From positions 39,178 through 103,177 of the forward strand of contig UQKC01000001.1 in assembly GCA_900541495.1 (NCBI GenBank): 64,000 bases of DNA, in the 5' to 3' direction. The stretch comes from an uncultured Ruminococcus sp. (lineage in GTDB: Bacteria; Bacillota; Clostridia; Oscillospirales; Ruminococcaceae). The notes beneath the pieces were generated by a model. It was not told where the DNA came from, searched no databases, and saw nothing but the letters and a program-made list of their open reading frames with translations. Made by a program: the position numbers and the translations under genes. Positions 11,341-31,280 of this stretch are shown in pieces; positions within the stretch are counted from its first letter, which is position 1, and the number at the start of each line of letters is the position of its first letter.

Positions 11341-11370
11341 ATACTGAATATTGAAATAACTTCACATAAA

Positions 11371-11545
11371 TGCGATAGCACTCCATCATTCGTAATGTAT
11401 GATGACAATCATACACCTATTAAATGCATGATCAGAAAACGATCGGCCAAGATCATCATCTTCGGCGGCTGCGCCTTTCAATGCTGCATAAGTCGACTTG
11501 GCAGTCTGTCAGCATCTACTATTCTATACCGCACCTCTATCTTAA
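11371..11545 (-). ncRNA. lysine riboswitch (L-box) leader of the asd operon
   Basis: minus-strand reads GATAGAGGTGCG ... TTGAAAGGCGCAGCCGCCGAAG ... TTGGCCG ... GATGGAGTGCTATC, matching L-box core elements as in B. subtilis lysC. Confidence 0.75.
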
Positions 11546-11635
11546 ATCAAGTTTTATATTATCACCATTCTTTCTATTTGTCAATAGATTTTTCCAAAAT
11601 AACATTAAATTAATATAATATCATATAAATACATT

Positions 11636-29435: not shown

Positions 29436-29456
29436 TAATTTCGCTAAATAAAAGTT
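29436..29456 (+). repeat. left copy of 21-bp direct repeat TAATTTCGCTAAATAAAAGTT (putative attL core)
   Basis: exact match to 39017..39037. Confidence 0.6.
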
Positions 29457-29603
29457 AATACGTCGTTTTTCCCCTCGGCTGTGAAGTCGGGGGATTTTGC
29501 TTTATAAAATTTTGTGAACGAATAATTTTTTGTGTGAATTTTAGTGCAATGGAAAATAATGCAGTCGGATATAGAGCATAGATTATTGATATTGATAAAC
29601 AAA

Positions 29604-29630
29604 AAAAATGCCCTTTCGGGCATTTCTTAG
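29604..29630 (-). terminator. terminator of the small minus-strand gene (gcccgaaagggc hairpin plus T-run)
   Basis: hairpin immediately after the stop at 29627 on the minus strand, followed by TTTTTTTT. Confidence 0.5.
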
Positions 29631-29860
29631 AATGGAAGTTCATCAGGGTCAATTTCATCAATGAAATTTTTTATATCTTCATCTGTTGCGATTTGAAAAG
29701 GACCTATAAAATCATATATACTTGGCTTTGACTCTGCCTGTGGAGTTGTTGCTAAATTCTGCCTATTTTCCCCGTGTAAAGTGTGATTGGAAAAACTTTC
29801 GACATAATCCCAAGTGCGCTCACTTACCTCGTAATAATCGTTGTTGCATAAACCGTACAT
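29627..29860 (-). CDS. small hypothetical protein (77 aa, acidic C-terminus DEDIKNFIDEIDPDELPF)
   Basis: ORF with AGGAG RBS and its own terminator; start at MYGLCNN; a degenerate inverted copy lies 220 bp away. Confidence 0.5.
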   Translation of the reverse strand: MYGLCNNDYYEVSERTWDYVESFSNHTLHGENRQNLATTPQAESKPSIYDFIGPFQIATDEDIKNFIDEIDPDELPF

Positions 29861-30082
29861 AATATTTTTTCTCCTTTGAATTTGATTTCGTTGCACGTTA
29901 ATTACCTTATTTTTTTTTGCGGCTTTTTACCAAGTTTTAAAGCTTCTGTGAATAGATTTTTAAAGGAGTGAGGAACGAGCGGAATGGAAAAGGTATTAAC
30001 AAAAGGTTTAAAAGGTGGTAGAAAATTGCAAAAAAAATAAGGTATAGTGCAGAATCGAAAGCAAATCAAAGGAGAAAAAAAT

Positions 30083-30297
30083 TGTGCGGTTTGAGCAACG
30101 GCGGTTTGGAGAGTGTGAGCGTTTGGGATTATGTCGGAAGTTTTTTTACACTTTACACAAGGAAAGTGGCAGAATTTAGCTTCAACGGAGCTGATAGAGT
30201 CAAAGTCAAGTGTATATGATTTGTCCTTTTCAGCTTGCAATAGATGAAGATATAAAAAATTTCATTGATGAAATTGACCTTGATGAACTTATTCTAA
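30083..30297 (+). pseudogene. frameshifted inverted paralogous copy of the 29627..29860 gene
   Basis: about 80% nucleotide identity in inverted orientation; N-terminal 43 codons in frame, then a +1 shift relative to the intact copy. Confidence 0.4.
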
Positions 30298-30490
30298 AAA
30301 GTGCGCAAAAGGGTGTTTACGGTGCAGGAATAGAAATAATCTGTGCGCCGTATCAGCGGAATGAAAAGGAATTGCAATAAAATGCCTCCGCTCGGTTGAG
30401 AGCGTGGCGCACACTTGCGCCCAGGAGTTCACAAAACTTTTACAATACTACCTTGCGGAATACGGAGTTGCGCATATAATTAAAAACCCG

Positions 30491-30772
30491 GGAGATAGAC
30501 CCGCACGTTGACGGAGATAGACCCGCACGTTGACGGAGATAGACCCGCAGTTTAGGAATCTGAACATCTGACGTTTTCAGACATCTAACGAATCCGAGAA
30601 CGACCCACGACCGCAAGCGGGTCTATCTCTCTGAACATCTGACAGCTTCGAACATCTAACGAATCCGAGAACGACCCACGACCGCAAGCGGGTCTATCTC
30701 TTTGAACATCTGACAGCTGCGAACATCTAATGGATATGAGAACGACCCACGACCGCAAGCGGGCCTATCTCC
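30491..30772. repeat. iteron/inverted-repeat array: 3x GGAGATAGACCCGCA(CGTTGAC), then 3 tandem ~70-bp units each ending in its reverse complement GCGGGTCTATCTC
   Basis: read directly; each ~70-bp unit also has internal GAACATCTGAC / GAACATCTAAC sub-repeats; candidate phage ori or packaging signal. Confidence 0.7.
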
Positions 30773-30900
30773 CTTAACCAGCCAAAATGCGCAACGGAGT
30801 ATTACGCAAGGTGGAGATTGTAAAAGCTTTGTGAACGGTGTACAGTGTGGGCGTTGTTCGGTTCGCTGTTTCTTCGGTGTTTGCCGTCTGTGTGGGCGCA

Positions 30901-30948
30901 AAAAAATGACGGTTATTCCGCTTGCGGGGTAACCGTCATTTTTTTATC
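30901..30948. terminator. strong bidirectional terminator (aaaaaaatgacggttacc..ggtaaccgtcattttttt)
   Basis: perfect long stem with A-run and T-run on either side. Confidence 0.6.
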
Positions 30949-30961
30949 GTGCGCCGCACGT

Positions 30962-31117
30962 TTATTTCTCCTGCATTTCATAATATTTTTTAATAATCTG
31001 TATAACTTGCGCCGAAAATGTTCTTGTTTCGTTTTCTGCGCTTCTTTTAACTTTTTCTGCTAATTCTTTTGGAAAGCGTATGCTTTTGACTAAATTTTCT
31101 TCTTTGTCATTCATCAT
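30962..31117 (-). CDS. 51-aa ribbon-helix-helix (Arc/CopG-type) regulator, divergent from the phage structural operon
   Basis: MMNDKEENLVKSIRFPKELAEKVKRSAENETRTFSAQVIQIIKKYYEMQEK; RBS GGGTG; below the ORF-track size cutoff. Confidence 0.55.
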   Translation of the reverse strand: MMNDKEENLVKSIRFPKELAEKVKRSAENETRTFSAQVIQIIKKYYEMQEK

Positions 31118-31159
31118 AGTTTTACACCCTCTTTCAAACTACATCATACTACATAAAAA

Positions 31160-31195
31160 TACACTTGTCAATTTGTTAAAATTGTCAATTGTAAT
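31160..31195. promoter_or_regulatory. direct repeats TTGTCAATT x2 (candidate operator) in the divergent promoter region between the RHH gene and the phage operon
   Basis: ttgtcaatttgttaaaattgtcaattg, about 85 nt upstream of the ATG at 31281. Confidence 0.35.
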
Positions 31196-31280
31196 TTATT
31201 GTAGTTTGTGGTAAGCTTTAAATGTAGTTTAAAACACTACACTGTAAAATTTTTATTAACAAAGGAAGAGGTTTTATATT

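Follow-up and report, generated by a model that had tools for sequence, protein, structure and literature searches.

To our knowledge, what is known of the filamentous phages from Gram-positive gut anaerobes comes almost entirely from sequence, and no cis-acting replication element has been defined for them. In f1/M13, the (-) origin comprises the hairpins B and C and is primed by the host RNA polymerase holoenzyme. It is reportedly a -35/-10-like and orientation-specific hairpin, a picture that is said to go back to Higashitani et al. in 1997 and Zenkin et al. in 2006. The packaging signal of the Ff phages, with a length of about 78 nt, has no promoter-like motifs, and the single-strand origin (sso) cassettes of plasmids are exchanged between replicons with unrelated Reps. 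The stem-loops Frpo, ssi and ssp rebuild -35 and -10 boxes on single-stranded DNA and recruit RNA polymerase, their transcripts can prime synthesis of the complementary strand, and they are inactivated by conversion to double-stranded DNA (PMC9849209; PMC11541004; bioRxiv 10.64898/2026.01.09.698686). By definition, finally, an sso works in one orientation and in the single-stranded state only, and it depends more on structure than on sequence (PMC4595007).

The element described here lies in an inovirus-type prophage of about 9.6 kb that is integrase-less and inserted at a dif-like palindrome within the window, by which we denote the whole 64-kb stretch of DNA that was analyzed. The bounds of the insert were set by contigs from other samples that have the same flanking genes and no phage (empty sites L029, L035 and L036; L numbers are our handles for the loci compared). 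The following features frame the prophage and the element:

29436..29456, plus strand: attL core TAATTTCGCTAAATAAAAGTT, the left prophage boundary as obtained by comparison with the empty sites
30900..30945, no strand assigned: bidirectional hairpin resembling an intrinsic terminator, located between the element and the RHH gene; a 22-nt inverted repeat with an A-run on one side and a T-run on the other
30962..31117, minus strand: RHH gene of 51 aa, ribbon-helix-helix (Arc/CopG-like) by Pfam and PHROG matches
39017..39037, plus strand: attR core, the same 21-mer as attL, inside the palindrome ATTTCGCTAAA-TAAAAG-TTTAGCGAAAT

The empty site is an 11-6-11 palindrome, and other prophages take up the same att site in other samples, at least six different ones that are inovirus-like and integrase-less, besides one IS200-like element. 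No recombinase was found among the prophage ORFs, and integration looks like the Xer type at a dif-like site. The plus-strand genes from 31281 on include a Zot/pI-type ATPase (34763-35632) and a rolling-circle Rep of the G2P type (35737-36726), for which the best genome match is Huintestinicola butyrica. The genes for SpoIVA and SipL adjoin the prophage, and from these the host was judged to be a spore-forming, Clostridium-like gut bacterium. The cumulative GC skew peaks at about 39 kb. Minus-strand ORFs are found at 30240-29444 and, across attP, at 38374-37858, and the left region of the window is in part a lineage-specific inverted duplication.

A preliminary description of this DNA had reported an array of iterons and inverted repeats at the left end of the prophage. 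The array is indeed phage-borne and non-coding, but it does not mark the end, as it begins 1035 bp inside the prophage from attL. The three tandem iteron copies and the three subsequent units of some 70 bp were recovered by Tandem Repeats Finder and a repeat finder:

30491..30556, plus strand: three tandem units of 22 bp, the amplified 5' arm of an inner stem, with arm cores at 30490-30504, 30513-30526 and 30535-30548
30559..30771, plus strand: three tandem units of 71 bp, the amplified apex and 3' arm of the inner stem, with return arms at 30617-30629, 30688-30700 and 30759-30773

Two of the 22-bp units are identical and the third, with a differing tail, is 77% identical; the 71-bp units show 100, 93 and 83% identity. 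The 13-mer GAGATAGACCCGC is present in three copies on the plus strand (30492, 30514, 30536) and in three inverted copies on the minus strand (30617, 30688 and 30759, the last with one mismatch). It does not occur elsewhere in the 64-kb window, where 0.68 copies would be expected by chance, and none of 100 shuffled sequences reached six. The units had been described as ending in the reverse complement of the iteron, which is correct for GCGGGTCTATCTC only and not for the GACCGCAA part. Sub-repeats within each unit are real: two copies of GAACATCTRAC per 71-bp unit accompany a conserved GAACGA...CGACC motif and were located at 30562, 30633, 30650, 30704 and 30721, the sixth copy being CAGACATCTAAC. 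The repeat finder additionally returned an outer inverted repeat, 30427-30475 / 30787-30836, with a length of about 50 bp; it surrounds the entire array and had been missed in the preliminary description.

Six copies of a 13-mer, with a spacing of 22 bp that corresponds to two helical turns, resemble plasmid iterons, and the RHH gene adjoins the array. Direct and inverted iterons might then be bound by Rep, by a partition protein or by the RHH protein, and mark a rolling-circle (+) origin or a centromere. We consider this very unlikely, and the decisive evidence comes from related inoviruses, a comparison that the preliminary description had itself proposed. Related phage genomes were gathered via the RHH protein and its homologues on public contigs and, together with the covariance-model search described below, yielded about 15 distinct versions of the element, in phage contigs as well as in prophages. 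Outside the window lineage all of these are single-copy: one arm, one apex and one return arm form a hairpin element of 223-228 nt (delimited by regular expressions and the covariance-model family), and phages with 90-98% identical proteins are among them. In the genomes gathered via the RHH protein the element is placed between GTTCAC... and ...GTGAAC. The direct repeats are absent from every relative outside that lineage, and for the array as such this is the kind of absence by which the preliminary description had said that it would be refuted.

Amplified forms are confined to the window lineage, with 3+3 units in the window and 2+3 in L002/L008, the same prophage from another sample, in which the 22-bp unit count is two. 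In L005 at least two 71-bp units are present up to the end of its contig. Note that these copy numbers derive from short-read assemblies, three of which, being independent, agree on the 71-bp repeats. As read from this comparison, the array arose in an older hairpin through tandem amplification, which affected one arm by itself and the opposite arm together with the apex, and it is because of this amplification of a hairpin arm that the locus looks like a set of iterons. The 22-bp units are taken to be recent because they are identical (save for the differing tail of the third) and variable in number, while the 71-bp units are taken to be older because they have diverged from one another. We treat the amplification as a slippage-type expansion that left the outer stem and the loop untouched. 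A quite different phage, L031, with an initiator of the Rep_trans family, retains a single-copy hairpin with one apex unit, and its inner stem, GGGAGATAGACCCGC...GCGGGCCTATCTCCC, is identical to that of the window, including an A.C mismatch that is retained in the last unit of the window. The newer return arms, in turn, are perfect complements of the 5' arm, and only the oldest keeps the mismatch. Correction or template switching within the hairpin may have produced the perfect arms, although this is speculation.

A covariance model, R1, was built from 12 versions and added diverged copies in L072, L073, L027 (in the H. butyrica genome), L032 (a prophage at the same att site) and L092. The element is not universal, as it is lacking in other RHH-bearing relatives. 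Blastn of the array region against phage and plasmid collections gave no match, viral and genome collections did not contain the exact iteron pair, and the arm motif is absent from IMG/VR. A metagenome scan retrieved 18 loci, of which just two, L010 and L012, proved genuine. The copy in L010 appeared to lie in foreign DNA, but the contig is an artificial product of assembly, a chimera in which a shared 17-mer links the copy to DNA of an SSU5-like phage of E. coli. This bears on the notion that the element is a MITE-like miniature inverted-repeat transposable element that inserted into phage genomes. A discrete unit of 225 nt with long terminal inverted repeats in otherwise different phages has the appearance of such an element; however, every copy found is in an inovirus-like genome and on its coding strand, there is no evident target-site duplication, the chimeric contig was the sole apparently foreign context and the scan of the genome collection for the arm motif pair was empty. 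We regard a transposable element as extremely improbable.

As the preliminary description had further suggested, the region was folded as single-stranded DNA, and it is in this form that the inverted repeats matter. The minimum-energy fold of the 410-nt unit is one long hairpin with -89.3 kcal/mol and a z-score of -10.9, in which the three long-range stems nest as had been anticipated. It comprises the following parts:

30427..30836, plus strand: whole hairpin element, 410 nt in the window, with outer stem, internal loop, inner stem(s) and apex
30427..30475, plus strand: outer stem, 5' arm, carrying the -35-like TTGCGG at 30453-30458
30475..30480, plus strand: -10-like TATAAT, whose first base closes the outer stem, the rest lying in the 5' side of the internal loop
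30774..30786, plus strand: 3' side of the internal loop, TTAACCAGCCAAA, inside the nearly invariant CCCTTAACCAGCCAAAA
30787..30836, plus strand: outer stem, 3' arm, holding the conserved GGTGGAG bulge region

All versions fold alike, and this includes ones with almost no sequence identity in the stems; z-scores of -6 to -11 were obtained. In the common architecture, an outer stem of about 45 bp leads to an internal loop of about 14x13 nt, beyond which an inner stem of 14-18 bp carries an apex of about 70 nt. In the internal loop of the ancestral form, which has about 225 nt in total, the 5' side opens with TATAAT and the 3' side is CTTAACCAGCCAAAA.

Conservation of the fold was assessed with two alignments. 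In alignment A1 (12 sequences), 52 pairs are 95% paired, versus about 45% when the partners are slid against each other, and 17 pairs have changed on both sides. Alignment A2 is restricted to the outer stem and adds the distant members; here, 42 pairs are 91% paired versus 33-47% for slid partners, and as many as 26 have changed on both sides. For A1 none of 500 shuffles was as good on any measure, and the same number of shuffles failed to match A2. Both stems thus covary strongly, the outer stem most of all. Folding energy is uninformative with respect to the strand (-89.3 vs -88.7 kcal/mol), but the mismatches are not: with the poorly aligned L032 excluded, G.T cells outnumber A.C cells by 24 to 1 on the plus strand, which is therefore the folding strand. 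As judged from this covariation, the hairpin structure is under selection, and on the plus strand. In all seven lineages checked the strand of the element is also that of the rep gene and the morphogenesis genes, and wherever both were seen the element shares one strand with a CTTG|ATA nick motif. From gene orientation, the nick motif and the biology of Ff we infer that the plus strand would be the one that is packaged.

Of 16 versions, 15 have TATAAT or CATAAT at the same structural position in the loop, and the 12 close ones also have a TTGnnn in the stem, 16-17 nt upstream of this -10 motif. The pair scores 9-11 of 12 in 13 of the 16, namely in the 12 close versions and in L032, where it reads TTGACA-16-TAGGCT, while the best matches on the opposite strand score 7-9 at scattered positions, so that nothing comparable exists there. 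The TTG of the -35 motif is conserved while the adjoining stem bases covary. In the window itself the -35 motif is weak (TTGCGG, 3/6) and was missed by a consensus scan, and in the distant L027, L072 and L073 a -35 is not recognizable and only the -10 is present. On the 3' side of the loop, CCCTTAACCAGCCAAAA is almost invariant in alignment A1. In the fold, then, the -35 region is duplex, the -10 is held open, and the conserved 3' side of the loop stands opposite as the template strand.

We propose, with about even confidence, that the hairpin acts as a single-strand (minus-strand) origin by imitating a promoter on single-stranded DNA. Once the plus strand has been displaced or injected, the hairpin would fold and its stem would rebuild a duplex -35 region, while the internal loop would present the -10 as a pre-opened bubble. 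Judging from the resemblance of the motifs, the host sigma-A RNA polymerase might bind to this structure. The distance from the -10 suggests that RNA would start on the 3' arm, near the conserved TT of CCCTTAA, and run towards the apex, with the loop side at 30774..30786 as the putative template and start region for the primer RNA. Being complementary to the plus strand, this product could prime synthesis of the complementary strand. In the window lineage, duplication would have led to three 5' arms and three apex-plus-3'-arm units that pair as three nested stems. Single-stranded stem-loops that rebuild -35 and -10 boxes do recruit RNA polymerase, and the resulting transcripts can prime the complementary strand (PMC9849209; bioRxiv 10.64898/2026.01.09.698686). 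Features of an sso are present in the element: its structure is extensive and conserved over sequence, it is orientation-specific, and it is independent of Rep. Against a single-strand origin count the weak -35 of the window and its lack in the distant members, the RHH-bearing relatives that carry no copy, and the negative homology searches, by which the element is not tied to any proven origin. The single-strand origin also leaves the triplication of the apex and the perfect newer return arms unexplained.

Given its high stability, its orientation specificity and its position on the viral strand within the main non-coding region, the hairpin could also be a packaging (morphogenetic) signal. 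Such a hairpin would be double-stranded on single-stranded DNA, escape the ssDNA-binding protein and mark the start of virion assembly, in the manner of hairpin A of Ff, and it could coexist with an origin. Every phage that carries the element encodes a Zot/pI-type assembly ATPase. Nevertheless, a packaging signal leaves unexplained why a TATAAT is conserved in a loop of fixed size and a TTG at promoter spacing, and since the Zot proteins of the carriers are only 43-45% identical and their pIII-like proteins only 34-40%, the signal would need to have little sequence specificity. Hairpin A is likewise a long, imperfect, orientation-specific intergenic hairpin of the viral strand, but it differs in size and with respect to the promoter-like motifs. 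Packaging as the function of the element is unlikely in our estimation.

The same motifs might constitute an ordinary promoter on double-stranded DNA, and it counts against a single-strand origin that the promoter would work in this form as well, reading into the apex. Its product, a structured non-coding RNA with a length of about 250 nt, or some 450 nt in the window, would start just before GGGAGAUAG and end at the terminator at 30900-30945, and it might act on the convergent RHH transcript. A perfect -10, a correctly spaced TTG in the -35 and the terminator downstream agree with this, and so does the inner stem, which covaries and would fall within the RNA. The outer 5' arm, however, lies upstream of the transcription start, and yet it is the outer stem that covaries most. 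Moreover, no Rfam family matches, either at gathering or at E-value thresholds, and in L031 nothing follows the element on that strand. A double-stranded promoter for a structured RNA might hold for the inner part of the element; as an account of the whole, we find it rather improbable. A small ORF after the hairpin (GVQCGRC...) was ruled out by frame-breaking indels among relatives.

A candidate (+) origin is found next to the rep gene:

35634..35697, plus strand: probable (+) origin for Rep; TACTTGATATTAGCC comes after a GC-rich hairpin, and rep begins about 40 nt further downstream

The motif ACTTGATATTA matches the core of the phiX174 viral-strand origin at 11 of 11 positions and spans the annotated nick position, the putative cut being ACTTG|ATATTA. 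It is also found upstream of rep in L001-L005 and L008 and in L032 and L085, distant phages with a Rep of just 36% identity to that of the window. No phiX174-type nick motif exists within 30427-30836, and a Rep nick site inside the array was dropped in favor of 35634-35697. For L031, a motif of the pT181 type was matched at chance level only. The array had been expected to be a rolling-circle origin or to bind Rep, and this conflicts with the distribution of the inner stem in both directions: the same stem, with the same 13-mer, occurs with the unrelated Rep_trans of L031, and different stems and 13-mers accompany Reps that are 90-95% identical. Judging by these comparisons, the array is unlikely to be a Rep nicking site, a rolling-circle (+) origin or a Rep-binding site. 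The Reps that accompany the hairpin are of the G2P type in the window, L027, L032 and L072 and of the Rep_trans family in L031, and because the hairpin occurs with two unrelated Rep families we consider the element to be Rep-independent and usable with different Reps.

The RHH protein was ruled out as the iteron binder since an identical protein is found with three different inner-stem sequences. The promoter region of its own gene contains four or five A(A/T)ACTACA boxes, and by sequence these are a likelier RHH operator than the array, the protein probably being a phage regulator and not the partner of the array. In tblastn comparisons against the relatives none of the 23 prophage ORFs tracks the 13-mer. 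Direct repeats that co-vary with an initiator were not found, repeats being seen in the window lineage only.

Measured against the described systems, the element comes closest to those that start synthesis on single-stranded DNA. As in Ff, the (+) single strand of an inovirus must be converted to duplex, and an intergenic hairpin of the viral strand is orientation-specific and has a -10-like and, in most versions, a -35-like motif. Unlike the two adjacent short hairpins of Ff, however, it is a single long hairpin that places the -10 in an internal loop and has a large apical domain, and the host is a Gram-positive, Clostridium-like one. Sequence similarity to Ff is not detectable, and R1 found nothing in M13. 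The sso elements of Firmicutes (ssoA, ssoU, ssoT and ssoW, and sso1 of ICEBs1) are structured over 150-340 nt, orientation-specific and located on the displaced strand (PMC4595007), as would hold for the hairpin. Like sso cassettes, the element is found with unrelated Reps, but it is carried by inovirus-like phages. A search with R1 returned no significant match in pT181 (ssoA) or pUB110 (ssoU), only generic short hairpins at 15-17 bits, and the ssoA motifs RS-B and CS-6 were not seen in the element by eye. With iteron origins or the 'bind' locus of a pMV158-type dso the locus shares tandem 22-bp direct repeats and inverted copies, in the window only; here, however, the repeats are not conserved in the family and track no replication protein. 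The Xer substrate attP(+) of CTX-phi is also an ssDNA hairpin of an integrase-less inovirus at a dif-like site, but the present element stays intact inside the prophage, 1 kb from attL, and has no similarity to the att core. An attP hairpin of the CTX-phi type was ruled out, as the att cores sit at the prophage ends. In our interpretation, the element would work like an sso or a single-stranded promoter without being a member of M13, pT181, pUB110 or Rfam families by homology. By the sequence criteria used here it is a new family with a distinct architecture of a single hairpin with loop and apex, the apex being triplicated in one lineage.

Frpo, ssi and ssp share with the element the single long stem-loop (Frpo was compared by description only), but they are located in the leading regions of plasmids from Enterobacteria, upstream of genes that are expressed, whereas here the carrier is a phage and no consistent gene follows. 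For the hairpin to have an equivalent task, RNA polymerase loaded on the incoming (+) strand would have to read leftwards and express the minus-strand genes ahead of the formation of the replicative form. The structural evidence for this is the same as for the single-strand origin, and the minus-strand ORFs of the window (30240-29444 and, across attP, 38374-37858) lie downstream in the direction of the template. This arrangement is not conserved, though: in L053 the element is followed by a gene on the opposite strand, the L032 homologue of a 73-aa protein lies on the other strand and upstream, and part of the left region of the window is the lineage-specific inverted duplication. We hold early expression as the role of the hairpin to be decidedly improbable. 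A broader proposal, to which we attach only a small probability, makes the element a phage counterpart of plasmid ssDNA promoters with two jobs. It would, first, provide a start of transcription, and so of priming and possibly of early minus-strand expression, and its stable nested stems would, second, be a roadblock that times the conversion of ssDNA to dsDNA. The triplication (3+3, polymorphic with 2+3) would then represent adaptive tuning of the delay or evasion of hairpin-sensing defences, and not neutral slippage.

A minus-strand origin, as we prefer to read the hairpin, provides a structurally supported candidate for the start of the complementary strand in these phages, in the form of a cassette of about 225 nt that occurs across phages with different Rep families, together with a candidate (+) origin next to rep and a covariance model with which further copies can be found. 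If priming by RNA polymerase holds true, ssDNA promoter mimicry would extend from the phages and plasmids of E. coli to the inoviruses of Clostridia. For annotation, the case advises caution, as an 'iteron array' can be the recent tandem amplification of a hairpin arm and not a design for protein binding.

A further structured region precedes the main hairpin:

30389..30421, plus strand: on the 5' side of the main hairpin, a pair of small hairpins (CGCTC-loop-GAGCG, 30389-30404; GGCGCA-loop-TGCGCC, 30406-30421)

These small hairpins are absent from L031 and L053 and are conserved in close relatives only; in L012 and L037 their stems are kept and their loops are variable.

The prophage lies between two att cores:

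29436-29456: att core flanking the prophage on the left (attL)
39017-39037: att core flanking the prophage on the right (attR)

The insertion site is an 11-6-11 palindrome, ATTTCGCTAAA-TAAAAG-TTTAGCGAAAT, with a family-4 glycosidase gene on one side and a PBP gene on the other. It is unoccupied in most strains, empty versions being represented by the public sequences L029, L035, L036 and L076-L083. In other samples, integrase-less inovirus-like prophages of at least six different kinds are found at the same site, as is one IS200-like Y1 transposase, and the cumulative GC skew of the window peaks at about 39 kb. The palindrome, the repeated occupancy without an integrase and the position of the skew peak suggest that the insertion site is the dif site of the chromosome, used by phages via the host Xer recombinases. 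In one genome (L001, GCA_964328945.1, 6000-12156) two different inovirus-like prophages stand in tandem, one with a G2P Rep and the other with a Rep_trans, a polylysogeny like that found at dif sites in Vibrio.

Within the prophage, a second and larger hairpin adjoins the element, built from two inverted copies of a small gene:

29694-30232: larger second hairpin directly left of the element, a 540-nt imperfect palindrome
29627-29860 (-): 77-aa ORF, one copy of the duplicated gene
ending at 30380 (+): second copy of the duplicated gene, partly degenerate

Folded as single-stranded DNA, the palindrome reaches -151.5 kcal/mol (z = -22), and DEDIKNFIDEID is found near the end of both gene copies. 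The inverted duplication seems restricted to the phage lineage of the window. Further left, about 50 bp inside attL, AAAATTTTGTGAACG (29506-29520) resembles the terminal arm of the element, GTTCACAAAA, in reversed orientation, a similarity that may be due to chance or to the remains of a further element copy; the covariance-model search returned no element at this position.

Among related phages, the element is absent from several that bear the RHH gene (L044-L052, L061-L063). In some other relatives (L053, 3560-3900, and L073) the sequences on either side of the 225-nt element are complementary to each other over a further 20-35 bp, which lengthens the hairpin to nearly 300 nt. The metagenome contig L010 (OQVL01034537.1, 1-2018), in which the element is fused to a sequence that shares about 98% identity with an E. 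coli SSU5-like phage-plasmid, was rejected as a genuine new context, since the junction is a 17-mer (303-319) common to both parts and the contig is thus an assembly chimera.

The RHH gene, which adjoins the element, shares its upstream region with a 133-aa gene:

31130-31240: region with the divergent promoters of the RHH and 133-aa genes

This region contains direct and inverted A(A/T)ACTACA boxes, four or five in all, which overlap the TTGACA-17-TATGAT promoter of the RHH gene and likely constitute its operator. The 5' arm of the element itself contains one invariant ACTAC (30446-30450), facing a conserved bulge. Many relatives (L037-L043, L044-L052, L053-L060) have a gene of 86 or 99 aa after the RHH gene. 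It is missing from the phage of the window and may form a module of two genes with the RHH gene, for example a toxin-antitoxin pair.

The (+) origin of the G2P-type Rep is probably located at 35634-35697, where a GC-rich hairpin is combined with ACTTGATATTA, which is identical to the phiX174 origin core. This arrangement is kept upstream of rep in the related phages L032 and L085, where Rep is only 36% identical. Elsewhere in the window, and unconnected with the hairpin finding, a lysine riboswitch was detected at 11368-11547 on the minus strand (104.9 bits).
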